62,400 bases of DNA, taken from IMG/VR virus record IMGVR_UViG_3300046718_000268. One strand, written 5' to 3'. The stretch is from a virus. Made by a program: the position numbers and the translations under genes. Of the stretch, positions 639-62,292 are shown one piece after another. The notes below the pieces were generated by a model, which was not told where the DNA came from, ran no database searches, and saw only the letters and a list, made by a program, of their open reading frames with translations. The first letter of the stretch is position 1; the number at the start of each line of letters is the position of its first letter.

Positions 639-797
639 ATGTCTACCATCTTGATTATTATCCTTATCATCATCCTTCTTGGTGGAGGAGGTGGATATTA
701 TGGATATAATCGATGGGGTAACTCAGGCCTCGGGGGAGTGCTTGGATTAGTTTTGATTGTTCTTTTAGTTCTTTGGCTGGCTGGTCATTTGGGGTGA
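639..797 (+). CDS. small membrane protein (52 aa), DUF3309-like GGGGGYYGY-RWG motif
   Basis: GGAGGA RBS 8 nt upstream; MSTILIIILIIILLGGGGGYYGYNRWGNSGLGGVLGLVLIVLLVLWLAGHLG. Confidence 0.5.
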   Translation: MSTILIIILIIILLGGGGGYYGYNRWGNSGLGGVLGLVLIVLLVLWLAGHLG

Positions 798-1536: not shown

Positions 1537-1560
1537 ATGCAGGCATCGGCAATTTCTTAC

Positions 1561-1589
1561 TTGCTAAGAGGGTAGCTTTCAACTACACT
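1561..1589 (+). promoter_or_regulatory. promoter-like TTGCTA-N17-TACACT upstream of terminase genes
   Basis: TTGCTA 1561-1566, TACACT 1584-1589. Confidence 0.35.
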
Positions 1590-1600
1590 CTTGAGTCGGA

Positions 1601-3378: not shown

Positions 3379-3409
3379 CTGGACATTGTGCTTTTGACCC
3401 TTTACACTG

Positions 3410-4966
3410 GTGGCAGTTATGACACTTGATCTTGTTCATCCTCAATATGCAAGAATGACGGCGAACTGGGCTATTGTTCGCGATTGCTATATGGGCGAGG
3501 CTCAAGTTAAGTCGAAACGAATAATATATCTTCCGCCGACACAAGGAATGATTCTAGATGGAATGGCGAATGCTAACCAACTAGGTTATCAGACCTATGA
3601 AGCTTACAAGATGCGAGCTGTCTGGCATGATCTCTATAAGGAAGCAATCGAGGCCTATATCGGTCTCTTGCATCAAAAACCTGCAACAATCACTCTTCCA
3701 AACCAAATGAAGGATGTCAGAAGCAATATGGGAGAGACTCCTCTTGAGCTTCTTCGACGAATTAATGAGGAACAACTTGTCAGTGGGCGTCTTGGATTGT
3801 TGGTAGATTTGCCTGTAGCTCCGGAGCCAGCAGGGCCTCTACCTTATGTTGCCATGTACCTTGCCGAGTTTGTGCGTAATTGGGACATAGGTGAGGACAC
3901 TGCACTTCAAGCATCGCTTAATTTTGTCATTCTCGATGAGAGTGGTTACACTCGCGACACAAACATCAATTTTGGTTGGATCAATCAAGTTCGTTATCGT
4001 CTTTGTCAGCTTGGCGATATTACAACGTCCGATGCTGGAAATTACATGACCGGATTGTATAAGGTCACAGGAGTTGGTTCTCCGACCTATGATCCGAAAT
4101 TGATGGCTACACCGTTGCTTCGAGGTGTACCAATGAAGAAGATTCCTTTTACTTTTGTCGATACAAAGGATCTTTTGGCATCTATCGATTTGCCTCCGCT
4201 TCTAGGTCTTGCCAACATTATGTTGACGATCTATCGAAGTGAGGCCGACTATCGACAGAATCTGTTCATGCAAGGCCAGGATACACTGGTCACTATCGGA
4301 ACAATTGGAAAGAAGGATCCTACTAATCCCGACGCTCCCTTGCGAACTGGTGCTGGATCCCGTATCGAAATGGATCAAGGAGGAGATGCCAAGTATATTG
4401 GCGTCAATTCTTCTGGTCTTCCTGAACAACGTAGTGCCATTCAGAATGATCGCTCTAGAGCTGAAGTTCGAGCTGGTCAGCTGATTAATGCTCGTGTCGG
4501 TGATAAGGAGTCAGGCGAAGCGCTTAAAACTCGACTTGCTGCACAGACTGCTACCTTGAAGCAAATTGCTCTTGCAGGCGCTGCAGGCTTGCAGGAAGCA
4601 CTTCAAAATGTAGCCATATGGATGGGACTTGATCCTGCTACTGTGAAGATTGAGCCGAATCTCGAATTTAGTTCGACTCTCATTACTGGTCAGGACATGT
4701 TCCAGCTCATGCAGGCGAAAGATTTGGGTATGCCCATCTCCTATGAGAGCATTCATGCTTATATGGTCGATCGTGGTATTACAACCATGAACTTCGACGA
4801 TGAGCTTGCGACTATCCTCAAGGAGCGTCAACAAGTTCAGCTTCTGAAGGATCCTGTTGCTCAACAGCAACAGGCAGATCAATTGAAAGCTCAACAAGAC
4901 GCGGCGGCAGCGGCAGCTAGAGCTCGTCCGCCTGCGCCGAATGGCGGCACGCCATCAGCCAGATGA
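3410..4966 (+). CDS. portal protein
   Basis: 518 aa, directly after TerL, acidic/Q-rich C-terminus; order TerL-portal-scaffold-capsid. Confidence 0.75.
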   Translation: MAVMTLDLVHPQYARMTANWAIVRDCYMGEAQVKSKRIIYLPPTQGMILDGMANANQLGYQTYEAYKMRAVWHDLYKEAIEAYIGLLHQKPATITLPNQMKDVRSNMGETPLELLRRINEEQLVSGRLGLLVDLPVAPEPAGPLPYVAMYLAEFVRNWDIGEDTALQASLNFVILDESGYTRDTNINFGWINQVRYRLCQLGDITTSDAGNYMTGLYKVTGVGSPTYDPKLMATPLLRGVPMKKIPFTFVDTKDLLASIDLPPLLGLANIMLTIYRSEADYRQNLFMQGQDTLVTIGTIGKKDPTNPDAPLRTGAGSRIEMDQGGDAKYIGVNSSGLPEQRSAIQNDRSRAEVRAGQLINARVGDKESGEALKTRLAAQTATLKQIALAGAAGLQEALQNVAIWMGLDPATVKIEPNLEFSSTLITGQDMFQLMQAKDLGMPISYESIHAYMVDRGITTMNFDDELATILKERQQVQLLKDPVAQQQQADQLKAQQDAAAAAARARPPAPNGGTPSAR

Positions 4967-27527: not shown

Positions 27528-27985
27528 AAATGAACATTAAAATCACTCTTGGAATGGCGATGTCTGCTGTCGTTCCGCTTAATAAACTAGCAACAATGGA
27601 AATGCCGGCAATACAGGCATTTTTCTTGACTAAACGGGCAGTGTGGTTATCAGAAGAACATGCTGTCTTTATTCAGGTACAGAATTCTCTTGTCAAACGT
27701 TATGGAATAGAAGATTCTGAACATCCGGGCAATTATAAAATCGAACCAACTATGCCTGGTTGGCAATTTTATGTTGAACAGATGAACGCAGTTCTAAGTG
27801 AGGAAATTGAATTTCCGTTCGATCCACTTCCAATTAGTGAATGGAAATTTAATCTAACGCCGCAAGATATTTTTACTCTTGGATTTATTTTCGACGGTGG
27901 TGTTGAACCTTTGTCGGATGAAACTCGTGCTCGACGTACGCGATTGCAACGACTGGCAGAGACTGGAAGTCGAACGCTACAATAG
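27515..27985 (+). CDS. hypothetical protein (start 27515 or 27530)
   Basis: Last + strand ORF of the structural arm; its 3' end overlaps the convergent polymerase gene by 9 nt. Confidence 0.45.
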   Translation: MEFIEMNIKITLGMAMSAVVPLNKLATMEMPAIQAFFLTKRAVWLSEEHAVFIQVQNSLVKRYGIEDSEHPGNYKIEPTMPGWQFYVEQMNAVLSEEIEFPFDPLPISEWKFNLTPQDIFTLGFIFDGGVEPLSDETRARRTRLQRLAETGSRTLQ

Positions 27986-29986
27986 TTCGGCACCAATCTT
28001 ACGTAGAATTTTCTTGCTTTCGGCAAGATAAACATCATAATCGATATCTTCAGGAAATGATTCAGGCAGGAGAAGTGCGGGCTTGCCTCCGGTCGATTTA
28101 CCGATCATATGTCCGTTTGAAGCGCGTATAATCTCCTTGCCTCGTTCTTCAATGCTATAGTACCAGCGCACAGATCGACCTAAATATTCGCCGTCCTTGA
28201 CAGCTCCATCTTTAACGGATTGAATTCGAATAAACTTACGAATATCTTTACATTTCCAAATAGTCTGCTCGAGCGGAATGCCTTCTTTTAGATAAGCTTC
28301 GACTGCGGCAATGCAAATTGTAGTTACAGGATTCTTATGAAGCTTTTTCTCAGTAGGCTCCTTCGGATCGTCCCATGGATTTGCATATGCTCCTTTACGC
28401 TTTACTTCGCCTTTTTCATCGATTGCGATATAGTTATTGATATCACGAGAGAATATGGAACGATAGTTTTTGCTCTCCGTTTGGAAACCTGTCTCATATT
28501 CCCACCATTTTGTAATTTGATTCAAGGTTGCCAATAAAGGTCGAGGACATTTAACCATCACACCATCTGTATTCGCACTAACCACAGTGATGCCTGACAT
28601 TTCAAGAGCCTCAATTAACATCAATAGAAATAGTTGTCCTCCAATTGTTACATGAAACATGCTTTTTGGCGAATACATAATTGACCAAAGATTAGCAAGT
28701 TTGCCGAATGTTCCGTTAACCACAATCTTAAGAGATTCGGCAACTGCCTTCAATCCGGCTGCTTTAGCTTTTAGTCGACGTTCTGTAATTGCTCCAAAGA
28801 TTTGTAGAAATATCGGTCCAAGATGATCTGGATAATAATTATTCAGTAGCATCAATCGCGGATAATAGGATGCAACATCTTTATCGACAAGTTGATAGTT
28901 AGCATCCGAATGATGCGCGGAGGATTTTTCTTTACTATGCAGACCGCCGATACCAAATCGATACGATGCATCCCCAATATTAATCTCTAATGCTTTGATT
29001 TGAGGAGATAGTTCGATATAACCATCTTCGCCTACTACGAACGGTGCCTGTTTAATTATTTCGAGCACTGAATTCATTAGCGGTGTTTGAAATTGAAGCG
29101 AATATGGCTTCTCGTAATAATAGACTGTTCCAGAATCGATTATAGGACGTCGAGCATGTCTATTAGTTAATCGTCTATATTCGGCACCTATAATTTGTTC
29201 TGCAATTTGTGCATCAGACTTGCTACGTAAATCAATATTATTCTCATTCGAAATCTGATAACGAAGTTCAATTTGTTCTTTCAAGCATTGATAAAGAAAT
29301 GCTGTCGATGTTGTGTCATTGACGCAATACCAGCGAACAATTGCCATCTGTTCTGGTGATAGCACAGTGTTCGGATGAAATGGCAAATCTTGCATTCGTG
29401 GAACATGCAAGCGACCGCCGTAGGTTTTCAAACTGGCAAATAGCGGCGCGACTTCAAACAAGTCAATGTGGTTAACAGCAAACGGCTTTATCTTATGACG
29501 TCTAAGAATATCGCTAGCTCTAAACTTGTGAATAATAATGTCGTCTGCGGCTTCTTTTAGAATGTCAACTTCGCAACCTTCAAGTGCCATAGATGTAATC
29601 GGTATGTCAAAATTAATACCGTTGAAAGTTACAATCGTAAAATTATTCAAAATCCATTCGAACTTGGCGTTATTGTAAGTGAACGATCGATCCAGATCTT
29701 CTTCAAAGACTACAACTTTTCCTGTAGCGAAAGAGCGGAAGATAGCAAGGAAATAATTTGGGAAAATTTCGATATCGTACATAAGATGATCATCTGCTGT
29801 AAGTGCGACAGCAAGGTCATGATTAGTCATAATCTCAACAGGAAACCGTTGAGCTTCTTCAAGATTTGGAAGATAACCCGGTTCTAACCACACTGGCTTC
29901 GGTGCTACTCGTTTCGGTCTAACGAGTGATTTCTTCTTGATCTTTGGAAGGTCTTTCCAGAAGAAGCCAATTGCATCCGGGCGCAT
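27977..29986 (-). CDS. family B DNA polymerase with 3'-5' exonuclease
   Basis: Exo I YDIEIF, Exo II NGINFDIPI, Exo III YCVNDTTS. Pol motif A DVASYYPRLML (DxxSLYPS-like), motif B KIVVNGTFGKL (KxxxNSxYG-like), motif C ANTDGV (DTDS-like). Confidence 0.85.
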   Translation of the reverse strand: MRPDAIGFFWKDLPKIKKKSLVRPKRVAPKPVWLEPGYLPNLEEAQRFPVEIMTNHDLAVALTADDHLMYDIEIFPNYFLAIFRSFATGKVVVFEEDLDRSFTYNNAKFEWILNNFTIVTFNGINFDIPITSMALEGCEVDILKEAADDIIIHKFRASDILRRHKIKPFAVNHIDLFEVAPLFASLKTYGGRLHVPRMQDLPFHPNTVLSPEQMAIVRWYCVNDTTSTAFLYQCLKEQIELRYQISNENNIDLRSKSDAQIAEQIIGAEYRRLTNRHARRPIIDSGTVYYYEKPYSLQFQTPLMNSVLEIIKQAPFVVGEDGYIELSPQIKALEINIGDASYRFGIGGLHSKEKSSAHHSDANYQLVDKDVASYYPRLMLLNNYYPDHLGPIFLQIFGAITERRLKAKAAGLKAVAESLKIVVNGTFGKLANLWSIMYSPKSMFHVTIGGQLFLLMLIEALEMSGITVVSANTDGVMVKCPRPLLATLNQITKWWEYETGFQTESKNYRSIFSRDINNYIAIDEKGEVKRKGAYANPWDDPKEPTEKKLHKNPVTTICIAAVEAYLKEGIPLEQTIWKCKDIRKFIRIQSVKDGAVKDGEYLGRSVRWYYSIEERGKEIIRASNGHMIGKSTGGKPALLLPESFPEDIDYDVYLAESKKILRKIGAELL

Positions 29987-29989
29987 GGT

Positions 29990-30172
29990 TTAACCCAATC
30001 GTGTGATGGCCTTCGTCTTACCGTACATCAGAGACGCGATAACGCGACGGATATTTAGAAGGAGTGTCCTATCCTTCTTTGCTCGAGCTGTTGCTTTGTC
30101 TATGACCTTAAGAGTGAGTTCAAGCTCATGCGTTGTCAGCCTCGCGTTCCTCATTTGATATCCACCTTCCAA
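29990..30172 (-). CDS. small hypothetical protein (start probably internal)
   Basis: ORF only. Confidence 0.3.
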   Translation of the reverse strand: MEGGYQMRNARLTTHELELTLKVIDKATARAKKDRTLLLNIRRVIASLMYGKTKAITRLG

Positions 30173-31121
30173 TGATTGCTCCGCGGAGATTATCTCCGAA
30201 GAACATGCAAGCTGCTGGATATAATGACAGATCGATACTGTGCATCGTACCTTTTAACAGCTCTAACATTGGCAAAGCGTAGCAGCCTTTATGTTGGAAG
30301 TCCAGTAACTCATAACTAGCGGCGCTTCCTTCATCGTCGTGGCTAGTCCATATCGCACCATTACGAAAATAAACTTCATTCTGCTTGTTGACGAATGGTT
30401 TGATGCTTTGTAAAGCATGAAAGAAATTCTCGGCAATAGGCTTAGGATTAGAGTCGGCTTCTAATATCTTCTTAAAGATCGAAACTTGTTCTTTCTCATA
30501 AAGTCCTGAACGAATCCATCTTCCATCAGCATAATGGAACGTGATTGAATTTTCTGTCAGTTGTGCATGAGTTGGTTCATCTTGAATTCGAATGATCTCG
30601 TCAACAGCATCATGTGGAAGATTAATTGTGAACGGCAATTGAGTACCTATCCAATACTCAACTAGACAGACGTTGTTTGTCGCAAAGCAACTTTTATCGG
30701 ATAGAAGAACTCCATTGGCCCATAGACGAGATGCATCATTACCGATAAATGGTTCAACTGCCATCAACGCTTGTCGAATTGGCGTGCCAGTGAAATGAAC
30801 AAATTCGCCTGCTGGATGGACATGAGGAGTTTCCTCATCAATACATTCAATTGTTGTTTTATACGGTCCATTGAGAATTCGAAGTTTACCATTCGGCAAC
30901 AATGACAAAGTCATCGGATATTCTTCACTGCAATGAGCGATAGCTTGAACAAGCTCTCTAGCCTTCGGCTTGCAGTCGATATCTAATGCGATTGGTGAAC
31001 ATAGACCAAGAGATCCATTATAAGCTCGAATTGTACCTTTTTCAATACAGAAATGCTTCATTGAAGGAACTAGATCTTTCTTTGCGACTGCACCTTGAAC
31101 GAAACGTAGTTCTCTGAGCAT
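30126..31121 (-). CDS. sliding-clamp-like protein (DnaN-like, putative)
   Basis: 331 aa, N-terminus MLRELRFVQGAVAKKDLVPSMKHF resembles phage beta-clamp-like proteins as recalled; adjacent to the polymerase. Confidence 0.45.
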   Translation of the reverse strand: MLRELRFVQGAVAKKDLVPSMKHFCIEKGTIRAYNGSLGLCSPIALDIDCKPKARELVQAIAHCSEEYPMTLSLLPNGKLRILNGPYKTTIECIDEETPHVHPAGEFVHFTGTPIRQALMAVEPFIGNDASRLWANGVLLSDKSCFATNNVCLVEYWIGTQLPFTINLPHDAVDEIIRIQDEPTHAQLTENSITFHYADGRWIRSGLYEKEQVSIFKKILEADSNPKPIAENFFHALQSIKPFVNKQNEVYFRNGAIWTSHDDEGSAASYELLDFQHKGCYALPMLELLKGTMHSIDLSLYPAACMFFGDNLRGAIIGRWISNEEREADNA

Positions 31122-31154: not shown

Positions 31155-32084
31155 TTAGAAAAGCTCTTGAATCCGAACCTTAAACTTTTCGGATTGACTG
31201 GCATTGATCATCGAGTTAATCACGCCGAAAGACCAGAGGTTGTAGGCGGCTCTCGATTCATAGACTGTCGATAGACGATCGTATGTGAATCCTTGAAGCT
31301 CAAGTTGACGGAGAACATAATCTTGTTCAATCGGCGTCAATGTAGAGACATGCTGTCCCTTATCATGTCGAGCTGGAGACTTTTCAGAGACATTGATAGG
31401 TCCATGTAGAGGATTGACAATCGTACCGAATGCAGCGCTCTGAATCCAGGACGATGAATCACATGAATACCATGGATATCGTTCCATAAGTGGAACAGAT
31501 GTGATTCCGAAGCCATGAACCTTCAACTTAGGTCTGCCGGCACCGTCGATCAGATATTTATTCCATACCCGATCTAACCACACCATCAACTGTTGTGTCG
31601 AAGAACCTACCATGCCGCCTAATGTGATATAGGGATAGTTAGCGACGTAATATTCGAGATATCTTTCATCTTCTCCAGCATGGAAGCATGGCAACGGACG
31701 GAATCCACGATATTCCATTTCGAGCTGATTTCGATAAGTTTGAAGTGGGTCTCCGATGCCGTCAAGCACGGACGCCATGACAATTCCGTCAGAATCGTGT
31801 CTAAGGATATCTGTGTTCTTTTTGATGTACCCAACGTATTCCTCCACTGAGAGATTTACGCCAAGAGTGTATGCCGAAAAGGCACCACTATCAAGAAAGA
31901 TCTGAGCTTTGTTAGCACGCATTTCATCGACAAATTTTTGCTTGCCGACGTAATGCCACGATTCCAGAATATGTGGAAGTTCCCATAAGACCCAACGCTC
32001 TCGATCGTTAAGCTTCTCCCATCTAGCCTGGCCGTGCATGTATCCATTCGAATATACAGCCGCAGTATAGATGTTCATCTTCAT
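31155..32084 (-). CDS. dpdA: DpdA-like DNA-guanine transglycosylase (TGT superfamily)
   Basis: IFLDSGAFS motif typical of DpdA as recalled; about 310 aa; sits in the preQ0-synthesis cluster. Confidence 0.75.
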   Translation of the reverse strand: MKMNIYTAAVYSNGYMHGQARWEKLNDRERWVLWELPHILESWHYVGKQKFVDEMRANKAQIFLDSGAFSAYTLGVNLSVEEYVGYIKKNTDILRHDSDGIVMASVLDGIGDPLQTYRNQLEMEYRGFRPLPCFHAGEDERYLEYYVANYPYITLGGMVGSSTQQLMVWLDRVWNKYLIDGAGRPKLKVHGFGITSVPLMERYPWYSCDSSSWIQSAAFGTIVNPLHGPINVSEKSPARHDKGQHVSTLTPIEQDYVLRQLELQGFTYDRLSTVYESRAAYNLWSFGVINSMINASQSEKFKVRIQELF

Positions 32085-32605
32085 GGGCGATCTTTCTCAT
32101 CGACTAAACCCATGGCTAAAGCTGCTTGAGCACGAGGCGTATTCCAATCAACTGTGACATCTTTGATGATCCATTTCTTCTCATCATTGACGCTAGGAGG
32201 AACTAACAACTTCGCGCGAACACTGTCATAGTTGAGTTTCGCAATAATCTTATTCTTATTAAGTAAATAGCGAAGCTTTGGATCTTCATGAGCATCAGGA
32301 AACTTAGGGTCAATCCAGATCACCATAACCACAAGCGTATGTCTCACGCCGTCATTATCCATGGTAACAGTATCGGATTCTGGATGGATAACATAATGAG
32401 ACTGATCTGGTCGCTTAAGACCTTTTGCCTCATCCATCACTAGCCAGCCACAGTCCCAAAAACGACAGGAGATAGGACGATTTATGTAAATCGAACATCC
32501 AACTCCTTCTTCTTGAAAGCCACATTTATGCCCAGCCTTCTTTCCAATCTCTTCGACTGGAACAAGCTCACAGCACAGTTGACAATCTCCGCATTCCTTT
32601 TTCAT
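32081..32605 (-). CDS. YkgJ-type CxxCxxCC zinc/iron-chelating domain protein
   Basis: N-terminal CGDCQLCCE plus additional Cys (HKCG, GCS, SCRFWDCGW); 4-nt overlap with dpdA. Confidence 0.6.
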   Translation of the reverse strand: MKKECGDCQLCCELVPVEEIGKKAGHKCGFQEEGVGCSIYINRPISCRFWDCGWLVMDEAKGLKRPDQSHYVIHPESDTVTMDNDGVRHTLVVMVIWIDPKFPDAHEDPKLRYLLNKNKIIAKLNYDSVRAKLLVPPSVNDEKKWIIKDVTVDWNTPRAQAALAMGLVDEKDRP

Positions 32606-32629
32606 GTTACAATTATAGCACAGTCGGGG

Positions 32630-32704
32630 TTAACGTGCAAGCATTAAAAATTCATCACGAGCTTCGCGTTCATCTTTCATAACACCGCGTAGCGCTGACG
32701 TTAT
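32630..32704 (-). pseudogene. orphan duplicate of the folE 3' end (24 codons + stop) left downstream of the HNH gene
   Basis: - strand translation ITSALRGVMKDEREARDEFLMLAR*. The first 22 residues match the extant FolE C-terminus exactly, but 15 of the 22 codons differ synonymously. Confidence 0.75.
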
Positions 32705-33081
32705 CATCTTGGGCCTTTCCAATTCGGATTAGCTGGTCCAAATAGACGAGGTCTGACTCCTCTACCGCGGCGTTCTCTATCCTTCATATTTTTATCAGGA
32801 TCATCCAAATAAAAGCATTCCTTCTTAATACATGCTGGTTTATCACAATGATGCAAAACTTGGCAATGTTCTGGGTCTTCTTCAGGAGTTGGAATAGGAC
32901 CGATATAATGTTCATAACTTGCGCGATGAGCAAATCTAAACCATGGAATATTATCAACTGTTCCGCGCATTCTGCCATATCCATCTCGATCCTTCGCGCC
33001 AGTCCAAATATGACAACCGTCCTCATCAATTTGATACTTTTTGAGTTTTTCGCTCATTGGTTTTGAGGATCCTGCTCTCAT
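32704..33081 (-). mobile_element. HNH homing endonuclease gene inserted at the folE 3' end
   Basis: CHIWTGAKDRDGYGRM...FAHRASYEHYIGPIP...VLHHCDKPACIKKEC is an HNH_3-type signature; flanked by duplicated folE 3' ends. Confidence 0.8.
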
Positions 33082-33632
33082 TTTGAAAGCATCAAGAATT
33101 CGTCTCGGGCCTCTCGTTCATCCTTCATGACACCTCTTAAGGCGCTGGTAATCGTGTGATGACCTTGTTGACAGACACCTCTGCTCTCCATACATAGGTG
33201 GCGTGCGCGTACCAGAACGCCTACGCCGATCGGATTTAGTACGCTATGCATGGCATCTGCGATCTGATTAGTGAACCGCTCTTGAACTTGCAAACGTCGT
33301 GCGTACACATCTGATACAAGACGGGAGATTTTGCTGAGTCCGACGATTCGACCATTCGGTATGTAGCCGACGGTGGCGGTCCCGAAGAACGGTGCCATAT
33401 GATGCTCGCAATGACTGTAGAATGGTATGTCTTTTACGAGGATCATTTCGTCGACCGTCTCCGCGCCATCTTCGAAACATTTAAGAATATTCTCCGGACT
33501 GAGTTTATAGCCTGATGTAAAGAACTGCCACGCCTTAGCGACACGATACGGTGTTTCCTCCAATCCTTGACGTTGTGGATCTGGAGTAAGAATTGTCAAC
33601 ATATCATGAATAATAGCTTTGAGAGATTCCAT
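33078..33632 (-). CDS. folE: GTP cyclohydrolase I
   Basis: ETPYRVAKAW, FYSHCEHHMAPF, RLQVQERFTNQIADA motifs; start taken at MESLKAI (GGAG RBS, 2 nt after the queD stop). Confidence 0.9.
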   Translation of the reverse strand: MESLKAIIHDMLTILTPDPQRQGLEETPYRVAKAWQFFTSGYKLSPENILKCFEDGAETVDEMILVKDIPFYSHCEHHMAPFFGTATVGYIPNGRIVGLSKISRLVSDVYARRLQVQERFTNQIADAMHSVLNPIGVGVLVRARHLCMESRGVCQQGHHTITSALRGVMKDEREARDEFLMLSK

Positions 33633-33634
33633 TA

Positions 33635-34012
33635 TTAGAACTCCGGATTGCGTTTTGATATCGCCCAACAGTTCTTTGTCTCCCAGACTTGAACGCTTTC
33701 GCATATGACATTCTGAGATAGCGCACTAGCAATGCGCTCTCGAAACCAGTATGCGATAAATTCTGCTGTCGGATTTTCCAATCCTTCAATGTCGTTAAGC
33801 ATTCGATGATCACAGTAATCGATAAGCGGCAAGACTATGCGATCCAGATCGAAGAAATCTAGAATAAAACCTGTCTCCTGTATCGGTCCAGAAAGAACAA
33901 CTTCGATTTCATAGTTATGACCGTGAGGACGCTTGCACTTGTGGTTATCGGCGACATTTGGTAGCCAATGACCAGCGATGAGTTCATAACGATTTCCAAT
34001 TGTCGTTGTCAT
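33635..34012 (-). CDS. queD: 6-carboxy-5,6,7,8-tetrahydropterin synthase
   Basis: CKRPHGHNYEIEVV and CDHRMLND motifs; 125 aa. Confidence 0.9.
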   Translation of the reverse strand: MTTTIGNRYELIAGHWLPNVADNHKCKRPHGHNYEIEVVLSGPIQETGFILDFFDLDRIVLPLIDYCDHRMLNDIEGLENPTAEFIAYWFRERIASALSQNVICESVQVWETKNCWAISKRNPEF

Positions 34013-34965
34013 AGCGTTGTCCTCAAAACGAGGTTAAGAAGACTTAGATTCGCTTCACTTGTCAGACAATCGTCGATATCCGACAATTCAACGTATTTCG
34101 GATAATGTTCGTCAGCTGGATCAGCTCCAACTAATACAGCCGGCGGATAAACAAAGCCTCTGATAGCGCTAAATGTATTGCCACCTTCTCGAAGATAGAT
34201 GACAATCTTCTCATAACGCTTGCCGTAGGTGTCTCTCCATTCTCTATATCGGCGTTTGAGCGCTGCAATATGATATTCACGAACTTGTGGGTCGCAAAGA
34301 GTTCCATCCCAGTCGTAAGCATTAAAAGGATAGGTCATTTCGGCAAGTGCAGGAATAATACCCGCATTCGAAATATGGATATAATCCAATTCATTGAGCA
34401 CGCCAAGCTCATAGAGCTTCTTCCGAATAGTCGTATGGATGAAGCTCTTACTGTACGGTTTAGCATGCGAACAAATTGTCAAGAACGCAATCTTTCGACT
34501 TGAGTGATCTTCCCAAGCCTTCTTCCAATGCTCCTCGAACATGTCGACTTGCATGCGACCTACGCCTTGATAGAATAGCTTGGGGCTATGACTTGAGAAT
34601 CCTGTCTCTCGGATTATCGGTAAAGTATTAGTATTGTTCGAAATGAATTTGAAGATACTGTCGCTATTACCTTCCCAACGAATGGCATCGTCTCCAATAT
34701 AATAATCGAAGGAAGCTTTGCCGCTTTCGGTCGGATAAGGCGATTCGTTGATATGGTTAACAAACGATATAAGATTGTTATCGGTCAACCATTTTCTAAC
34801 CACATACTCGGGTCTTGTCGTCCAGACGCAAGTTGTGTGCCGAGCACGAAAAAGCATCTTGAGCAAACGAACTGCACGAAGGTCAGGTTCGCCTATTGCT
34901 TCTCCACTATCCCATTTAACAAATCGGGCGAGTGTTCCATCGAGGTCGAGACCGATGACTGACAT
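34009..34965 (-). CDS. fusion protein: N-terminal HAD-like phosphatase fold + C-terminal ArcS-signature (DUF5591-like) domain
   Basis: N-terminus GLDLDGTLA (HAD motif I). C-terminal ICSHAKPYSKSFIH fits the ArcS signature PC-X3-KPY-X2-S-X2-H as recalled. Confidence 0.6.
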   Translation of the reverse strand: MSVIGLDLDGTLARFVKWDSGEAIGEPDLRAVRLLKMLFRARHTTCVWTTRPEYVVRKWLTDNNLISFVNHINESPYPTESGKASFDYYIGDDAIRWEGNSDSIFKFISNNTNTLPIIRETGFSSHSPKLFYQGVGRMQVDMFEEHWKKAWEDHSSRKIAFLTICSHAKPYSKSFIHTTIRKKLYELGVLNELDYIHISNAGIIPALAEMTYPFNAYDWDGTLCDPQVREYHIAALKRRYREWRDTYGKRYEKIVIYLREGGNTFSAIRGFVYPPAVLVGADPADEHYPKYVELSDIDDCLTSEANLSLLNLVLRTTL

Positions 34966-35987
34966 GCAACATTCTCCGCGATTTGTAGAACTTGAGTGAA
35001 TCTGTCAAGCTCTTCCGATGTAGTAACGAACGACGGGCCAACCCTAATATACGGCTTATGCCACGAGATTACAAGCCTATAATGTTCGAACACTTTTCGA
35101 AATTTGTCGTAATTGCCGTCGACTAATTTAAAGCCGAATGCGCCTAGACCATAGAAGCCAAGATCTTGTAGGCGTCGTTGAATATAATTGACACGAAACC
35201 CAAGTTCAATCTCCTCCTGAATTAAGTGAGATAGAACTCGAAGGCCAATGGTTGAGGTGAGGTTGTTGCCACCGCAAGTTGTGTTTAACCCTGTGGGCGG
35301 CACCGTGCGAATCGCTTTGTAGTGGCCCCCTAGCAGCGCTAACGGTGCGCCTTGTGCTATACCCTTACCGGCAATTACCATGTCTGCACTGCGGTTCATA
35401 AATCGAACACCGCAACGCATGAAGCTAGTAATCATTTCGTCGGCTACGAGAGTTGCGCCATATATATCGCACATTTCACGAAGTCGTCTTTCGTCCGGCA
35501 TATGCCCAGACCAGCCCTGAATCGGCTCATAAAAAAGCATGTCGAAGGATGGTACATGATTGGCATTTGGGTCGATTGTAATAAGCTCGATTGGATTACC
35601 CCAAGGCACATCATATCGAGCGCAAGACATCGATATAGACTTACCATGGAACGAGTTTTGAAGAACTGCAACTTTCGGCAGTCTTTTAATTGCAGTGGCA
35701 GTGATTTGGATGGCACGTTCGACTGCTTCGGCTCCAGTGTTGACTAGCAACCATTCGAAACGTGAATCGTAATGATGAAGAAGTTCACATAGCAGTCTTG
35801 CATTTTCCGCAGGACGATCGTAAGTGTTAATGAGACCAGACATAATAACATCGTTTAGTGCGTCATCTACAACTTTCGAACCATGTCCGAGAGACACATT
35901 CAAAATACCGCTGAGCATATCCAACCATTTAAGATTGAACTTGTCGACGATAACATTTCCGTGTGCTGATTTCATCATTTTCTGCAC
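34893..35987 (-). CDS. class-III (PLP-dependent) aminotransferase
   Basis: NTGAEAVERAIQI, FHGKS, ADEMITSFMRCG, ADMVIAGKGIAQGAPL (candidate PLP-lysine) motifs; overlaps both neighbouring genes. Confidence 0.8.
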   Translation of the reverse strand: MQKMMKSAHGNVIVDKFNLKWLDMLSGILNVSLGHGSKVVDDALNDVIMSGLINTYDRPAENARLLCELLHHYDSRFEWLLVNTGAEAVERAIQITATAIKRLPKVAVLQNSFHGKSISMSCARYDVPWGNPIELITIDPNANHVPSFDMLFYEPIQGWSGHMPDERRLREMCDIYGATLVADEMITSFMRCGVRFMNRSADMVIAGKGIAQGAPLALLGGHYKAIRTVPPTGLNTTCGGNNLTSTIGLRVLSHLIQEEIELGFRVNYIQRRLQDLGFYGLGAFGFKLVDGNYDKFRKVFEHYRLVISWHKPYIRVGPSFVTTSEELDRFTQVLQIAENVACQSSVSTSMEHSPDLLNGIVEKQ

Positions 35988-36736
35988 TCATCATAATTGG
36001 TGGTTTTTGGAAGTTCCATCAATCCTTCGCTCCATGCTCTAACCACAAGTGGATCCGGCAGTCCAGCTTTTTCAAAACCGTCTGCTCGGAGCACGTTAGC
36101 GTGATTCATGTCGGTAGGCGGATATTTGCCGTCATACGACGTATGCGTATAGGCTAGAGCTTCCCAACATCCAGGAAGCCCTTTTGCCATTCGAACCGTA
36201 TCAGCTTTAGACAGGTCCATGAGCGGTGTATGAATTCGGATAGGACGAGTACCTCGATGATCATGACCCAACGCGGCATTGATATAATCTTGTGTGCGTC
36301 GGATAAATTCATAACGGCAATCGTCATAGTTGGCATTATCCATCTGACAGACGCCGATGACAATGCTACTGATTCCCCATGCCTCAGCGCGGTTCGCAGC
36401 TATGGTGAGGAACAATGCATTACGCATCGGAACAAACGTCAATTCTCTGCGATCGCCGATGGTCTTTTCCATCTGCTCTGCGTTTTCGTAACGCTCGAGA
36501 GACTGCGACGAATCAACTAATGGTGATTTACTGATTAATTCAGCAGTGTGAATTAAACTCCAAGTCTTAACTTTCGCCATTGCTGTAACTTCTTCAGCTG
36601 CACGAATTTCACGAATATGGGTCTGCCCATAATCGAAAGTAATAGCATGAACTTCTTCGAACATGAACTTAGCCCAGAAGAGGCATGTCGTCGAATCCTG
36701 TCCACCGGAGAGAATTACGAGAGCTTTACTTGACAT
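35975..36736 (-). CDS. queC: 7-cyano-7-deazaguanine synthase-like (QueC family), C-terminal Zn-Cys cluster apparently absent
   Basis: ALVILSGGQDSTTCL PP-loop. The C-terminal SYDGKYPPTDMNHANVLRADGF occupies the place of the usual C..C..C..C motif. Confidence 0.8.
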   Translation of the reverse strand: MSSKALVILSGGQDSTTCLFWAKFMFEEVHAITFDYGQTHIREIRAAEEVTAMAKVKTWSLIHTAELISKSPLVDSSQSLERYENAEQMEKTIGDRRELTFVPMRNALFLTIAANRAEAWGISSIVIGVCQMDNANYDDCRYEFIRRTQDYINAALGHDHRGTRPIRIHTPLMDLSKADTVRMAKGLPGCWEALAYTHTSYDGKYPPTDMNHANVLRADGFEKAGLPDPLVVRAWSEGLMELPKTTNYDECRK

Positions 36737-36899
36737 TGTCCCTCTCTTTAATCATTCGAAGTTTAAGGTCATACAAATATACACGGATTAGTTGGGCATC
36801 AGCAAGCGTTAATTTTTGCAGAGCAGTGATGTCATTACCTTTAACGATTTCTTCAAAGATCCGAAGCAAATCATTAATTGGTGTAAGATTGTTCGGCAT
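36726..36899 (-). CDS. small hypothetical protein (57 aa)
   Basis: Hand translation MPNNLTPINDLLRIFEEIVKGNDITALQKLTLADAQLIRVYLYDLKLRMIKERDNVK; coupled to both neighbours. Confidence 0.35.
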   Translation of the reverse strand: MPNNLTPINDLLRIFEEIVKGNDITALQKLTLADAQLIRVYLYDLKLRMIKERDNVK

Positions 36900-37234
36900 T
36901 AAAAGACTCCGTCACCTGGAACTGCACCTTCAATATCTAAAGATATTGATGTTTTATATTCTTCTATTTTTAGAAATTCACGATGTGCGTCTTTCGGTTT
37001 AACTCCATCGCGAACAATACAAGTATGAAAATCAATAAACATCATAGCAATCTTACCTTCTCTAGAGAGAGAACGTCTTGGAACGTAGCACATTCCTCCT
37101 GAGAATAAAAAGCGTTGATCCCAATAGATATTATTGCCAAGTTCGGCAACTTGAATTAATCCAGGCAAGTGTTTTTGTGAAAGTGGATTTCTTGGATTCC
37201 ACATGACGATATAATTATTAACTGTAATAGTCAT
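36899..37234 (-). CDS. hypothetical protein (111 aa) inside the deazaguanine cluster
   Basis: ORF abutting the queE stop; no motif recognised. Confidence 0.5.
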   Translation of the reverse strand: MTITVNNYIVMWNPRNPLSQKHLPGLIQVAELGNNIYWDQRFLFSGGMCYVPRRSLSREGKIAMMFIDFHTCIVRDGVKPKDAHREFLKIEEYKTSISLDIEGAVPGDGVF

Positions 37235-38002
37235 TTAGTCGACTCCAATAATCTTATGAAGTTGCAGACCAAGAATGTAGCCGTACCTTAGACAGGAGGC
37301 TTTGCATGCTTCGAGCGAAGCTTCATTGCGAGCCAAGTCATCAGGGTTATCGCCAATGCCATGGTCCATGGGCTCAAGGTAAATCGGGACACGGTCCCTT
37401 TCGTATAGTGGAGTGACATATTTTGGTCTGGCAACGACTGACTTGACATTGTGGTTAAGGACTTTGATGGGGAGCCCGTCGATTTTGCTAACGGAGTCAT
37501 AGGACATCACGTATTTGAAGCAACATGCAACTTCGTGAAAGATTGGATGTACACGTCCAGTTTTAGGACTGCAGACAATGTATATACCATCACGCTTTCC
37601 GAGATCTTGTTCATATTCAAAATCTTTCGGAGGCTGTATTGTACCGTTTGTTTCGATTTGAACCCAATAAAGCAATCGACGTAGACGTTTCAAAAGTGGT
37701 TCGAGATTTTGTCGAAAAGGTTCGCCGCCAGTTATGACGATAAGTGGGCTGATGACATTATAACCACAAGCGTCATTGACGCTCGTAGTAATATCGACAA
37801 TTGTCATATATCGACGTTGGCTAGTATAGTCCGTATCACATCCGGGGCATTGAAGATTGCAGCCGGCAAGGCGGATAAAGACTGCCGGCGTACCAGCAAA
37901 CGGACCTTCGCCTTGTATCGTGTAGAAAATAGATTGAATTTCTAGGTCGCCATTCGGATGTGCTTCTCGCTTCTCGATTGGCTGTTGGTTTAACATAGTC
38001 AC
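37235..38002 (-). CDS. queE: 7-carboxy-7-deazaguanine synthase (radical SAM)
   Basis: TIQGEGPFAGTPAVFIRLAGCNLQCPGCDT (Cx14CxxC QueE-type cluster). Confidence 0.85.
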   Translation of the reverse strand: MTMLNQQPIEKREAHPNGDLEIQSIFYTIQGEGPFAGTPAVFIRLAGCNLQCPGCDTDYTSQRRYMTIVDITTSVNDACGYNVISPLIVITGGEPFRQNLEPLLKRLRRLLYWVQIETNGTIQPPKDFEYEQDLGKRDGIYIVCSPKTGRVHPIFHEVACCFKYVMSYDSVSKIDGLPIKVLNHNVKSVVARPKYVTPLYERDRVPIYLEPMDHGIGDNPDDLARNEASLEACKASCLRYGYILGLQLHKIIGVD

Positions 38003-38213: not shown

Positions 38214-38810
38214 TTACGACTGCGGCTGCTCGGAAGCAACCGGAGCCGTGGGGGCGGCGACCGGCGCTGCGGCGACCGGAACGGGCGCGGGCTTCGGCGC
38301 CTCGATCCGACCGCTGATGCCGTGGAACTTCCGCCAGCGAGCGTACTCGGCGCGCACGTTGGCATCGTTCAGACCGCGCGAACGGCTGATTTCCATCGAC
38401 TCCTTGATGGAAGCCGGCTGTCCGTTGCGGGTCGAGACCTCGTCGAACACGTCCCAAGCCTGGGCGCAGAGGCCACCCGGCTTCGGTCGACGGACCTCGT
38501 TCTGCTCCGGCATCTTGTTCGCCTCCTTGGCGGCGAGCATCGCGGCCTTCTGGTCGGCCTTCTCCTTCTCCTTCGCCTGCTTCTCGGCAGCACGAGCGGC
38601 TTCCTTCGCCTGCTTCTCGGCGACCTTGGCCGCCTGCTTGGCGACCTTCTCCGCCTCGCGCTTGGCAGCGGCTTCGGCCTTCGCAGCTTCCTTCGCAGCA
38701 GCGGCAGCAGCCTGAGCGGCAGCGACCGCGGCAGGATCGATGACCGGCGTCGGCGTCGGGGTCGGGGTCGGATTCGGAACAGGCATCGCATTCGGGTCGG
38801 TGGTATCCAT
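38214..38810 (-). CDS. Ala/Lys/Pro-repeat protein with conserved C-terminal WRK..GISG domain (paralog of 54926..55540)
   Basis: Start at MDTTDPN (AAGGAG RBS); PTPTPTPTP and AAKEAAKAEAAAK repeats; C-terminal GGLCAQAWDVF...RAEYARWRKFHGISGR. Confidence 0.6.
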   Translation of the reverse strand: MDTTDPNAMPVPNPTPTPTPTPVIDPAAVAAAQAAAAAAKEAAKAEAAAKREAEKVAKQAAKVAEKQAKEAARAAEKQAKEKEKADQKAAMLAAKEANKMPEQNEVRRPKPGGLCAQAWDVFDEVSTRNGQPASIKESMEISRSRGLNDANVRAEYARWRKFHGISGRIEAPKPAPVPVAAAPVAAPTAPVASEQPQS

Positions 38811-38857
38811 TTTCAGTCTCCTTCTTTGAGTTAGGGAACCATGCGGTTCGTGCAGTA

Positions 38858-38886
38858 TAAATAGCATGTCAGGGCGGACCTTGCAA
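38858..38886 (-). promoter_or_regulatory. promoter-like TTGCAA-N17-TATTTA (- strand) for 38214..38810
   Basis: - strand reads CTTGCAAGGTccgccctgacatgcTATTTA; shares TTGCAAGGT with the early promoters. Confidence 0.45.
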
Positions 38887-38889
38887 GCA

Positions 38890-39480
38890 TTATTTCTTGA
38901 TAGGGCGCATTTTCTGCCAGTTACCAAGTTCGCAGGAGCAAGTCGAACGATTTACTCCCTCTTTCTCAAGGATCTTCATCCACTCCTTGCGGAGCTTAAG
39001 AACAACCTTGATATCGGTCGGGCTACCAGCGGCGGCCCAGAGCTCATCAGCACGTTGCCAAATCAGATCGCGCGTACCAGCCTGACGGGGCGCACGAGAC
39101 ATCAACTGTGCCGGAATTGATGGGTCGGTAGGTGATGTGATATATCCACCGACTAGAACGACAGTTTGCTCTCCGATTGTAGCCATCTTCTTAACCGGAT
39201 GAGCTTCGAAATCATGCTCTCCAAGGAATTCTGGGAAGTTCTCATAGATTGCAATGCTGCGAGCATTGCCGTCCTGGCTGATATTCACCTGAACTTCGAA
39301 ATTCTCGTTATCGCAGAAGATTGGCCGACGTTCCTTGCGGCGAACATCCGATACGCTCTTGATCGGCGCCCACACGCGCGGCGCATCAATCCAATCTGGA
39401 ATCGGCAAACGGATCAATTGTCCGTTCTTATCGAATTTGCGCTTATCCAGAAAGACGGGAATCTTCAGATCGTCTTGCAT
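38890..39480 (-). CDS. hypothetical protein (196 aa); C-terminus distantly like the WRK-domain family
   Basis: ORF; C-terminal ...RSTCSCELGNWQKMRPI. Confidence 0.55.
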   Translation of the reverse strand: MQDDLKIPVFLDKRKFDKNGQLIRLPIPDWIDAPRVWAPIKSVSDVRRKERRPIFCDNENFEVQVNISQDGNARSIAIYENFPEFLGEHDFEAHPVKKMATIGEQTVVLVGGYITSPTDPSIPAQLMSRAPRQAGTRDLIWQRADELWAAAGSPTDIKVVLKLRKEWMKILEKEGVNRSTCSCELGNWQKMRPIKK

Positions 39481-46348: not shown

Positions 46349-46741
46349 TTAGCTCAGTGTCTTATATTCTTTTGGAACTTCTTTCTTGTCGGCTCGGACT
46401 TGTGCTGATTGGTCGCTGTATTTATCGCCGTAGCGTTTGGCGAGCTTGGTGGCATTGTGGTCAAGCGTCTCCTGCCGCGTAATATCGAAAGCCTGACGCA
46501 AACCTTCCATATAGAATTCGAGATCGCCAAGTTCCTCGATAACGCTGTATTTCATTTCATCGGTGAGTTCTGCGTTATAGATAATATGCTTTTTCACAGC
46601 ATCGAAAAGCTCGCCGGCTTCTCCTTGAATGCAGCTTGCGTGATGCCACATTTCGCACTTGAGTCCGTTTAACGATTTAAGAATTGCATTACCTGATTTA
46701 GCAAGCGAACGAACCATTTCGCTATAGATGATTGTAGTCAT
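46349..46741 (-). CDS. MazG-like nucleotide pyrophosphohydrolase
   Basis: EAGELFDAVKKHI...EELGDLEFY EExxE/D-type motifs. Confidence 0.75.
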   Translation of the reverse strand: MTTIIYSEMVRSLAKSGNAILKSLNGLKCEMWHHASCIQGEAGELFDAVKKHIIYNAELTDEMKYSVIEELGDLEFYMEGLRQAFDITRQETLDHNATKLAKRYGDKYSDQSAQVRADKKEVPKEYKTLS

Positions 46742-54925: not shown

Positions 54926-55540
54926 ATGCTTAATATTTCAACAGCTAACAAGGGCCAGCTGCGCCAGGGTATGCGCGATGCTGGTTTGCCGTATGCGGTC
55001 GATGGGCATACGCTTACGAATGAGGAAATGCGCGTTGCACTGCTCGCGCACTTCGGTACGCCGGCGGACGATGTTGCGCCGGTCGTGCAGGAAGAGGAAG
55101 TTGCACCTCCGGTGCAGGCTTTCGATGCCGCGCTGAACGGCGTGGTTGATGCGTGCGCCGCGCAAGTTGCGGTGGACGAGGTTGCTGCACAGGAAGTGCA
55201 GCTTGTTGCCGACCCGACGGAAGTTGCGCCGCTTGTGCAGATTCCGGAAGTTGCGCCCGTCGTGCAGATTCCGACCCCGATGGTTGCGCCGCGCGGTACC
55301 AGCAAGGGGCTCAAAATCCAAAAGGACCGCCCCAGCCAAAACGGTGTACGCATGCCCAGCGAGGGCGGCTTGTGCCGTGCGGTATGGGACTATTTGCAGA
55401 ACGAGTGCGATCACGGCCGCATGCCGACCGCAAAGGACGTCAAGGCGTACGCTGCGACCGTCGGTTGGAACACGAACAATGCAAGTATCGAGTTCTACAA
55501 CTGGCGCAAGTACAATGGGATCTCGGGTCGGCAGAGCTAG
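54926..55540 (+). CDS. early protein with (E/D)VAP.VQ repeats and C-terminal WRK..GISG domain (paralog of 38214..38810)
   Basis: Start at MLNISTANKG. 27-bp tandem repeat at 55220-55246 / 55247-55273. C-terminal GGLCRAVWDYL...SIEFYNWRKYNGISGR. Confidence 0.6.
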   Translation: MLNISTANKGQLRQGMRDAGLPYAVDGHTLTNEEMRVALLAHFGTPADDVAPVVQEEEVAPPVQAFDAALNGVVDACAAQVAVDEVAAQEVQLVADPTEVAPLVQIPEVAPVVQIPTPMVAPRGTSKGLKIQKDRPSQNGVRMPSEGGLCRAVWDYLQNECDHGRMPTAKDVKAYAATVGWNTNNASIEFYNWRKYNGISGRQS

Positions 55541-55561
55541 CACGTACCACGCAACAAGGAG

Positions 55562-61143: not shown

Positions 61144-61407
61144 ATGGGAACTAAGAACAATCCGGCTCCATTCGATTGCTATGCAAATGCCGAGCCAGAC
61201 GAACCATATTTCGTCTTGCTAGGACGAGATGTTTCGGCACCAGCATTAGTTCGAGCATGGGCGCATGAACGTAATCGTCTTATCAAAACAGGCGAGAAGC
61301 CTATCTCGGATCTGCCTATGGTAGACGAAGCGATGGATTGTGCCAAGCACATGGAAGAATTTCGATATCGGCGCGATCAGGAACGGAATAAGACACACGA
61401 TGCCTAA
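61144..61407 (+). CDS. hypothetical protein (87 aa)
   Basis: Start at MGTKNNPAPFDCYANAEPDEPYFVLLGRD; the upstream part of ORF 61060..61407 is treated as untranslated leader. Confidence 0.5.
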   Translation: MGTKNNPAPFDCYANAEPDEPYFVLLGRDVSAPALVRAWAHERNRLIKTGEKPISDLPMVDEAMDCAKHMEEFRYRRDQERNKTHDA

Positions 61408-61837
61408 GATTTATCTTGCCGGGCCGATTTCAGGTCTGTCGCTCGAAGAAGCGAATCAATGGCGTAGACTTGCAACAATGAGTCTTCGTCCGGCAGAATG
61501 TATCAATCCGCTTCGTGGTGCTGAAAATCAGCCGGATCGGTACTTTAATCCGAATGGAGAACGCTGGACGAGTATGCCTCAGATTTTCCAGCGTGATCAT
61601 CATGATGTGATGACATGCGATGCGGTGCTAGCCAATTTCATTGGAGCGAAGATAGTTTCGCGCGGAACTCTGATGGAACTCGCTTGGGCATACGCCTATC
61701 GGAAGCCAATTGTAATGGCTATCGAGGAAGATAATCCGAATTACGATGTCTTCATGTGGCAGACTACTCCATTTGTCTGTGCCTCATTGGATGACGCAAT
61801 AGAGATGATGGTATTGCTTCTTAATCTCAGATGCTAA
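61400..61837 (+). CDS. nucleoside 2-deoxyribosyltransferase-like (Rossmann-like, DUF4406-type) protein
   Basis: N-terminus MPKIYLAGPISG typical of this fold family as recalled; ...GTLMELAWAYAYRKPIV. Confidence 0.5.
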   Translation: MPKIYLAGPISGLSLEEANQWRRLATMSLRPAECINPLRGAENQPDRYFNPNGERWTSMPQIFQRDHHDVMTCDAVLANFIGAKIVSRGTLMELAWAYAYRKPIVMAIEEDNPNYDVFMWQTTPFVCASLDDAIEMMVLLLNLRC

Positions 61838-62292
61838 ATATCCGAGCAAAAGGTCAAGGAGGCGAACGTGAGATTGCTACTATTCTCAACGGCATTGTCA
61901 TTCTTGCTATGCGCGAGCTTGGATTCCCAGAATCTTCGGTTCTCCTTGCTTCTTCCACCATTCAACGTAATCAACAACAGTCTGCAGTGGGTGGATCAGA
62001 TCTTCTTCACACATTTGGTTTATCGATTGAAGTGAAGCGACAGGAGCAATTATCTATTGAAACTTGGTGGCTTCAATGTACGACAGCCGCTAAACGTAAC
62101 AATGAATGGCCTGTTCTACTTTATCGCCAGAACCATAAGCCGTGGCGCTGTGTGACTTATATGTCACTTCCAATGCCTTTCAATGAACCATTTGGTCATG
62201 TCATGGCTGAGATGAGTTATCCAAATTTTCAGATGTGGTTTAAGGCTTGGGTTCTTATCAAACTTCGTCAAGGAGATGAAGTGAGGATTTAA
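61831..62292 (+). CDS. PD-(D/E)XK nuclease, Holliday-junction-resolvase-like
   Basis: GGEREIA ... GGSDL ... SIEVKR pattern (E / D / ExK). Confidence 0.5.
   Translation: MLNIRAKGQGGEREIATILNGIVILAMRELGFPESSVLLASSTIQRNQQQSAVGGSDLLHTFGLSIEVKRQEQLSIETWWLQCTTAAKRNNEWPVLLYRQNHKPWRCVTYMSLPMPFNEPFGHVMAEMSYPNFQMWFKAWVLIKLRQGDEVRI

Follow-up and report, generated by a model that had tools for sequence, protein, structure and literature searches.

The 62,400-nt stretch of viral DNA analysed here (IMG/VR record IMGVR_UViG_3300046718_000268; hereafter the window) harbors an island for 7-deazaguanine modification of DNA at positions 31155-38002. Two of its genes, encoding a class-III aminotransferase (AT) and a HAD phosphatase fused to an ArcS2 core (HAD-ArcS2), appear to represent a new, previously undescribed variant inside the known DpdA-dependent system. 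According to the listing of open reading frames (ORFs), the island comprises 11 ORFs, all on the minus strand, with the transcription order QueE, ORF111, ORF57, QueC, AT, HAD-ArcS2, QueD, FolE, HNH, Cys-rich ORF and DpdA; downstream of DpdA lie a clamp-like gene and the gene of a family-A polymerase. Most junctions are abutting ends or overlaps of 1 to 73 nt, the exceptions being gaps of 98 nt after HNH and 33 nt after DpdA. The ORF coordinates and the family scans confirm the co-directional, tightly coupled block outlined in a preliminary description of this DNA. The Pfam and NCBIfam scans comprised 47 ORFs at 27-62 kb, each 57 aa or longer, leaving aside the structural half (1-27 kb) and about a dozen shorter ORFs at 27-62 kb, the largest of 85 aa. 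A megablast search of the island against phage records gave no match. Because the related cultured phages have genomes of 57-66 kb, the window probably represents a near-complete phage genome.

The preQ0 pathway is complete. The genes for FolE (GTP cyclohydrolase I; 33078..33704; PF01227, E 6e-66), QueD (CPH4 synthase; 33635..34012; PF01242, E 8.5e-31), QueE (7-carboxy-7-deazaguanine synthase, a radical-SAM protein; 37235..38002; phrog_2076, E 2e-52; TIGR QueE models, E about 1e-20) and QueC (preQ0 synthase in its plain form; 35975..36736; PF06508, E 2e-51; TIGR00364, 163 bits against a cut-off of 150) were all matched in the Pfam, NCBIfam and PHROG comparisons, and QueE is 41-51% identical across all related loci. 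The DpdA1-type DNA guanine transglycosylase (31155..32084; phrog_887, E 6e-88) shares 77% identity with its equivalent in Pseudomonas phage MiCath, 64-73% with those of other Pseudomonas phages, 67-69% with those of Seurat and Nonagvirus SE1, and 66% with Alteromonas and Sphingomonas phage proteins. It is 64% identical to the DpdA of Iggy, whose DNA has been shown experimentally to carry dPreQ0. These identities to Queuovirinae-type relatives, including the dPreQ0-carrying Iggy, classify the phage as a DpdA1-type, Queuovirinae-like siphophage, and the joint presence of DpdA and the full preQ0 set makes it, as judged by gene content, a member of the DpdA-dependent 7-deazaguanine DNA modification systems.

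Among the Queuovirinae-type DpdA1 systems, CAjan (Escherichia) and Iggy (Pseudomonas) carry dPreQ0, Enterobacteria phage 9g has Gat-QueC and deoxyarchaeosine (dG+), and for MiCath, which also has Gat-QueC, dG+ is predicted. The window has in common with them the order QueE-QueC-QueD-FolE-DpdA-clamp-polymerase, DpdA identities of 64-77% and a siphophage genome of about 60 kb. MiCath is the closest cultured relative and exhibits this same gene order; its QueC of 467 aa has a length that fits a Gat-QueC fusion, the type associated with dG+ in phage 9g (PMC6884629, PMC10484667). In contrast to the Gat-QueC phages, the QueC of the window lacks Gat, and two additional genes, AT and HAD-ArcS2, separate QueC from QueD. 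The tailoring position beside QueC thus seems to have been refilled with another device, consisting of plain QueC, AT and HAD-ArcS2 instead of Gat-QueC.

Eight 7-deazaguanines are known from DNA, and their tailoring depends on QueF, Gat-QueC, ArcS2 and DpdL/M/N. The preliminary description had seen neither QueF nor a Gat domain, which was borne out: none of the 47 scanned ORFs at 27-62 kb matched QueF, a glutamine amidotransferase, a second radical-SAM protein or RaSEA. The sole QueF-type match is a weak T-fold cross-match inside FolE; QueC, with its 253 aa, consists of the QueC domain only and has no glutamine amidotransferase fusion; and the only radical-SAM protein found in this region matches the QueE models instead of the RaSEA model TIGR01210. 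We also considered whether QueE could be a disguised RaSEA and rejected this on its NCBIfam and PHROG scores and its conservation in relatives that carry only dPreQ0. Judged by its genes, the island is thus not an archaeal ArcS/RaSEA, a Gat-QueC, a QueF or a DpdM system.

HAD-ArcS2 (34009..34965; 318 aa) combines a capless HAD phosphatase domain at about residues 1-110 with a DUF5591/ArcS2 core at about residues 130-318 (PF17884, 35.3 bits against a cut-off of 26), and a database search established a family of 56 protein clusters with this HAD-DUF5591 fusion. The protein carries the HAD motif DLDGT, and its HAD domain shows the motifs I-IV (DxDxT, S/T, K, DD) and a Rossmannoid fold. Across 53 sequences of the family, D7, D9, T11, R51 and K83 do not vary, and D92 is kept in 90% or more. 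The ArcS motif of the window protein reads I-C165-SHA-K169-P-Y-SK-S174-FI-H177; it belongs to the family motif TICSHAKPYSKSxIH, which is invariant in 53 members and has Ile for the leading Pro of PC-X3-KPY-X2-S-X2-H. The structural check proposed in the preliminary description, carried out with AlphaFold2 and Foldseek, supported both a HAD fold and an ArcS2-like core. The AlphaFold2 model (pLDDT 90.7) aligns in its HAD domain with the BT_0820 HAD (PDB 2obb; Foldseek E 9e-5, TM-score 0.69 normalised to the target), and this domain also resembles phage nucleotidases or capless HADs of the PNKP type. The C-terminal domain matches the DUF5591 protein R9TEI9 of Vibrio phage nt-1 (Foldseek E 7e-7, probability 1.00, TM-score 0.55 normalised to the target). 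A sequence search of the PDB gave no match for HAD-ArcS2, and Foldseek against the PDB structures searched, none of which is an ArcS core, retrieved a relative for the HAD domain only. With its PF17884 score, its motif and its fold likeness to the nt-1 protein, the core is, on these comparisons, an ArcS2-type DUF5591 protein.

The window protein shares the catalytic core and the signature motif with the ArcS2 of Vibrio phage nt-1 and of Sulfolobus virus STSV2, and the full C-X3-KPY-X2-S-X2-H is kept as in STSV2. It is distinguished from both by an identity of only 24-27%, by its N-terminal HAD domain, by its obligatory AT neighbour and by its association with DpdA1 instead of DpdA2. The archaeal ArcS-RaSEA system has the DUF5591 core in common with it; in archaea, lysine is the amine that this core attaches to the nitrile of preQ0 (PMC11298593). 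Unlike archaeal ArcS, the window protein has no TGT-like N-terminal, C2 or PUA domain and no RaSEA partner was found in the scanned region; the archaeal ArcS equivalog NF040592 reached 32 bits against a cut-off of 440, and only model positions 257-355, i.e. the core, were matched. The expected substrate of the window ArcS2 is DNA or the free base, that of archaeal ArcS tRNA.

AT (34893..35987) is a class-III (omega-type) aminotransferase dependent on pyridoxal 5'-phosphate (PLP), with a PF00202 score of 98 bits against a cut-off of 30.5. Its catalytic set is kept and comprises the PLP-binding K208, the pyridine-nitrogen-contacting D183 and the carboxylate-binding R315, all invariant, together with a GAEA phosphate-binding motif. 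The signature of the protein is FHGK in place of FHGR, i.e. Lys for Arg, and EPxxGW/H in place of EPIQGEGG. The Arg of FHGR binds the substrate carboxylate in acetylornithine aminotransferase (AcOAT), GABA aminotransferase (GABA-AT) and ornithine aminotransferase (OAT), and AT differs from all three at this position; about 25 N-terminal residues are absent. The putrescine aminotransferase PatA of E. coli likewise has Lys at this position, with an identity to AT of only 22%. FHGK hints at an amine or aldehyde substrate that would lack an alpha-carboxylate.

AT belongs to a compact, phage-specific subfamily of about 340 aa, whose 35 clusters are 40-59% identical to it, in contrast to cellular aminotransferases with only 25-29%; the gap between the weakest phage member (E 4e-59) and the best cellular one (E 1e-16) is wide. 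None of the curated NCBIfam equivalogs (ArgD, GabT, OAT, EctB, PatA and others) is reached, the best being argD with 79 bits against a cut-off of 410. The subfamily was found solely beside DUF5591 genes. In the window, the 3' end of AT overlaps the start of HAD-ArcS2 by 73 nt in a different frame (34893-34965), and overlaps of 55-61 nt recur in three related loci (L005, L009 and L024, in our numbering of loci). One public gene call shortens HAD-ArcS2 to 282 aa and thereby loses the conserved DxDxT motif.

The context of the related loci was recovered by a family-alignment search, a single-protein query having found none, and compared by tblastn. In 15 non-identical loci with protein identities of 27-59%, AT lies immediately upstream of HAD-ArcS2 and usually overlaps it. 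This adjacency holds in every one of these loci that has upstream sequence, including two cultured Synechococcus phages. Most of the loci are arranged as QueE-QueC-AT-HAD/ArcS2-QueD-FolE-DpdA-clamp-PolA. The pair is located downstream of the polymerase, away from the preQ0 genes, and is still together in L037 and in Synechococcus phage Yong-L2-223 (with Ssp-JY38).

Yong-L2-223 (OM868081) and Ssp-JY38 (PP438428) are the only cultured phages with the pair, at 35% and 44% identity, and searches of 50,697 phage records with AT and HAD-ArcS2 retrieved these two alone. Both also encode QueE, QueC, QueD, FolE, DpdA, clamp and PolA. In GenBank their pair is labelled as "acetylornithine aminotransferase" together with "hypothetical protein" or "acid phosphatase", and the literature search found no paper naming Yong-L2-223. 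The arrangement differs from that of the window in the position of the pair downstream of the polymerase and in the gene that comes next, encoding a ribose-5-phosphate isomerase of the RpiB type. Its start coincides with the end of HAD-ArcS2 in Yong-L2-223 (L001, 9990-10433; PF02502, E 1e-39). RpiB was rejected as a general partner, as it was found only in the cyanophage and in none of the other loci examined.

A search with the core domain returned 102 representatives of three kinds, namely, HAD-fused proteins (about 22, with lengths of 308-346 aa), numerous proteins that consist of the core only (about 180-250 aa), and DUF5591 cores joined to a radical-SAM domain with a RaSEA score (TIGR01210). 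The core-only relatives were collected by an exhaustive search of representatives; a word-index search had yielded one cluster only. In five core-only ArcS2 lineages QueC lies directly upstream of the core. AT was not found in the three core-only lineages with enough flanking sequence, and it is absent from Vibrio phage nt-1, STSV2 and PhiF1. One core-only lineage (L012/13/27) belongs to the same phage clade as the window, with a DpdA identity of 63%. Its FolE is called at 317 aa, of which about 130 aa form an N-terminal extension (L012, 10782-11957; L027, 7546-8499).

The pattern suggests that HAD and AT were gained and lost together. Their co-occurrence (13/0 vs 1/8) corresponds to a Fisher p of 3e-5 among loci that are not phylogenetically independent, and the stronger argument appears to be the adjacency, which is kept through rearrangement and down to 27-36% identity. 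The preliminary description had tentatively assigned both AT and the HAD/ArcS-signature fusion to the deazaguanine pathway. This assignment held, as the two genes are adjacent in 15 loci, keep their catalytic residues and are absent as a unit from the five core-only sister lineages.

The third kind consists of single polypeptides with RaSEA and DUF5591 in either order (P0180, P0189, P0194, P0195, P0202, P0213). It suggests that the two-step chemistry of lysine transfer and cleavage also exists in fused form, and no description of such fusions was met in the literature examined. Since RaSEA-DUF5591 fusions occur elsewhere and no RaSEA was found in the scanned part of the window, the partner of the ArcS2 core seems to have been swapped.

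Two further loci carry additional genes beside an ArcS2 core. In L033 (4781-6651) the next gene upstream of QueC and a core-only ArcS2 encodes a GNAT acetyltransferase, and this enzyme could perform a further tailoring step by acetylating an amine-bearing adduct. L020 (Ga0172381_10027431, 309-4286) also contains a 113-aa ORF, a Vut_1/YhhQ-like transporter gene and QueC; the stop of its thymidylate-kinase-like P-loop gene overlaps the start of the core-only ArcS2 gene, so that a kinase is located where other loci have the phosphatase. A nucleotide-level role of HAD, conceivable from the 5'-nucleotidase likeness and from this kinase-like gene, was considered and found to be unsupported, given that preQ0 is a free base and DpdA exchanges bases.

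Based on strong homology, FolE, QueD, QueE and QueC would produce preQ0, and DpdA1 would exchange guanines in the phage DNA for a 7-deazaguanine base. AT would then aminate a carbonyl metabolite, probably a phosphorylated one, from an amino-acid donor, and the HAD domain would strip the phosphate before or after coupling, i.e. from the free amine phosphate or from the DNA-bound adduct. Capless HADs often act on large substrates. The ArcS2 domain would couple the amine to the nitrile of preQ0 or dPreQ0, as archaeal ArcS does with lysine, and the product would be a 7-formamidino-type (amidine) base, possibly N-substituted. We rate this whole model, a DNA-modification operon in which AT and HAD make an amine that ArcS2 couples into an amidine-type base, as evenly balanced between right and wrong. 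Its biochemical precedent is the ArcS of T. kodakarensis, which transfers L-lysine to the preQ0 nitrile, while the radical-SAM enzyme RaSEA alone turns preQ0-Lys into archaeosine (G+) (PMC11298593). The preliminary description had likewise proposed an amidine-type conjugate on the preQ0 nitrile, a reasonable prediction in the light of this lysine transfer (PMC11298593), whereas the share in it that was given to the Cys-cluster protein did not stand.

Within this model we lean towards an N-substituted deoxyarchaeosine over plain dG+, because a RaSEA-type trimming enzyme was not found and a dedicated amine-making pair has apparently been recruited. The amine assembled by AT and HAD would be non-proteinogenic, such as an amino-polyol or amino-sugar that originates from a sugar phosphate or triose phosphate, and ArcS2 would couple it to the dPreQ0 nitrile. 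We put forward this new base, together with the exemplary amine, as a tentative proposal that falls short of even probability; an amidine-type product of some kind, whether dG+ itself or one derived from it, is far more probable. The case for the new base is built on comparative genomics and the biochemistry of the family. The RpiB gene beside the cyanophage pair and the GNAT gene of L033 are weak hints at substituents that would be derived from sugar phosphates or bear an amine. Post-replicative thymidine hypermodification in the phages M6, ViI and PaMx11 provides a precedent for PLP-dependent tailoring and for amine or amino-acid appendages (PMC13458397) and differs from the island in the modified base and in its enzymes (kinase, aGPT-Pplase), which are not homologous to the island proteins.

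Several points weigh against a new base. In archaea, ArcS, Gat-QueC and QueF-L can replace one another in the synthesis of G+, and Gat-QueC is the enzyme of the closest relative, wherefore plain dG+ is the simplest expectation. The ArcS2 of phage nt-1 does yield dG+ in E. coli (PMC10516641). The substrate of AT is unreadable from its sequence, all equivalog models being far below their cut-offs, and the structural neighbours of HAD are generic capless phosphatases or nucleotidases, so that a nucleotide or a DNA end might be its substrate. L020, the sole exception to the co-occurrence, pairs a divergent FHGK aminotransferase with the thymidylate-kinase-like gene and a core-only ArcS2 and has no HAD. 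Finally, the association of AT and HAD may go back to one ancestral insertion.

The alternative that survives best is accordingly an end product of plain dG+, with AT and HAD-ArcS2 providing a third, RaSEA- and Gat-independent route to the unsubstituted formamidine. AT and HAD would act either as the source of the nitrogen donor or in the trimming of a transient adduct, and no new base would arise. We consider this less likely than not, yet a strong competitor in view of the points just given. It also agrees with the location of the module, which occupies the place of Gat-QueC, the maker of dG+, in MiCath and Nonagvirus-type relatives, and with the frequent association of DUF5591 cores with a trimming partner, as in the RaSEA fusions, for which AT and HAD could be an alternative. 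The core-only ArcS2 phages of the same clade, however, do without AT or HAD, and we know of no simple chemistry by which a PLP enzyme and a phosphatase would turn an N-alkyl amidine into the free amidine. Moreover, the yield of dG+ from the nt-1 enzyme is tiny relative to the dPreQ0 consumed: expression in E. coli lowered dPreQ0 from 926 to 0 per 10^6 nt and gave only 4 dG+ (PMC10516641 Table 3). With such a loss of dPreQ0 against so small a gain of dG+, the main product of nt-1 phage ArcS2 is uncertain.

A role of AT and HAD as auxiliary metabolic genes, e.g. in amino-acid or sugar-phosphate metabolism, which would stand beside ArcS2 by descent only, is improbable. Cyanophages are indeed rich in metabolic genes, and RpiB directly follows the pair in Yong-L2-223. 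On the other hand, HAD is covalently fused to ArcS2 in all 56 clusters of the family, AT overlaps HAD-ArcS2 translationally and is adjacent to it in two different genome arrangements, and the AT subfamily is known solely from beside DUF5591 genes. Least probable of all is another nitrile chemistry, e.g. a stepwise reduction driven by pyridoxamine 5'-phosphate (PMP) with transamination to a preQ1-type aminomethyl base that would replace QueF, the CxxCxxCC protein possibly N-methylating the base in this phage: aminotransferases and HAD phosphatases are both able to handle PLP/PMP, QueF was not found and yet a YkgJ-like Cys protein adjoins DpdA, and the known preQ1 methylase DpdM has been described as a YkgJ homolog, but the chemistry would be without precedent, none of the relatives has the Cys protein, in which no DUF3109 or DpdM similarity is detectable either, and the ArcS family is known for forming amidines.

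The remaining four ORFs of the island are ORF111 (36899..37234; no Pfam, NCBIfam or PHROG match), ORF57 (36726..36899; a GST_C match with E 0.0024, below the gathering score), the gene of an HNH homing-type endonuclease (32704..33081; phrog_1872, E 5e-22) and the Cys-rich ORF (32081..32605; 174 aa). All four are absent from all related deazaguanine loci (tblastn, 1e-3) and probably represent strain-specific insertions outside the pathway. Of the six non-canonical ORFs singled out in the preliminary description there remain AT and HAD-ArcS2, i.e. two genes with three domains, as these four ORFs are unconserved. The Cys-rich ORF, with the motif CxxCxxCC ... C-x-IY-x-x-RP-x-x-C, matches phrog_9155 (E 1e-8) and PF03692 only with E 0.32; its AlphaFold2 single-sequence model is unusable (pLDDT 41). 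It had been regarded as a possible pathway member, which was not borne out, since no homolog was found in the related deazaguanine loci at the threshold just given. Tblastn against the 50,697 phage records retrieved only a hypothetical protein of Rhizobium phage RHph_Y1_11, which lies outside any deazaguanine context. The assignment of the preQ1 methylase DpdM to YkgJ-like proteins (PMC10516641) had been overlooked in the preliminary description. An identification of the Cys-rich ORF as DpdM was rejected, as there was no DUF3109 match at E <=10 and no match to DpdM-encoding phages, such as those of Cellulophaga or Vibrio.

The literature searched contains no mention of a module of aminotransferase, phosphatase and ArcS2, although metagenomes supply more than 50 protein clusters in which it is conserved. 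If the base is new, it would widen the chemistry by which phages evade restriction and add a new enzymatic attachment of amines to DNA. An N-substituted deoxyarchaeosine would involve the first PLP-dependent step in the hypermodification of DNA 7-deazaguanines, and it would be made by a widespread clade of uncultured siphophages as well as by the two cultured Synechococcus phages. If the product is dG+, the module would represent a third route to archaeosine, independent of RaSEA and Gat, and would help to explain the activity of phage ArcS2, for which the published nt-1 data are unbalanced. As the module occurs in cultured phages whose host, Synechococcus PCC 7002, is tractable, the question is directly testable.

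On its downstream side the island is flanked by the genes of a sliding-clamp-like processivity factor (30126..31121, minus strand; phrog_947, E 1.4e-59) and the family-A DNA polymerase (27977..29986, minus strand; 669 aa), which shows full-length identities of 43-48% with the polymerases of related loci; a more distant relative that matches its N-terminus only is annotated as PF00476 DNA_pol_A. Upstream of QueE, an Ala/Lys/Pro-rich ORF of 237 aa (38214-38927, minus strand) lies in a patch of high GC content. Nearly all related loci keep its C-terminal domain of about 70 aa at the site immediately before QueE on the upstream side, and the window contains a paralog at about 55331-55549 (plus strand). 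Near the end of the window, a nucleoside 2-deoxyribosyltransferase-like gene (61340-61837, plus strand; PF05014, E 1e-10) has a PDDEXK_15 nuclease gene (61831-62292, plus strand) as its immediate downstream neighbour, and the former could play a part in base or nucleotide salvage tied to DNA modification. The replication module contains a gene for a MazG-like nucleotide pyrophosphohydrolase (46349-46741, minus strand; a weak match, E 9e-4), and the related locus L005 has a 145-aa ORF between FolE and DpdA that is MazG-like by eye only.

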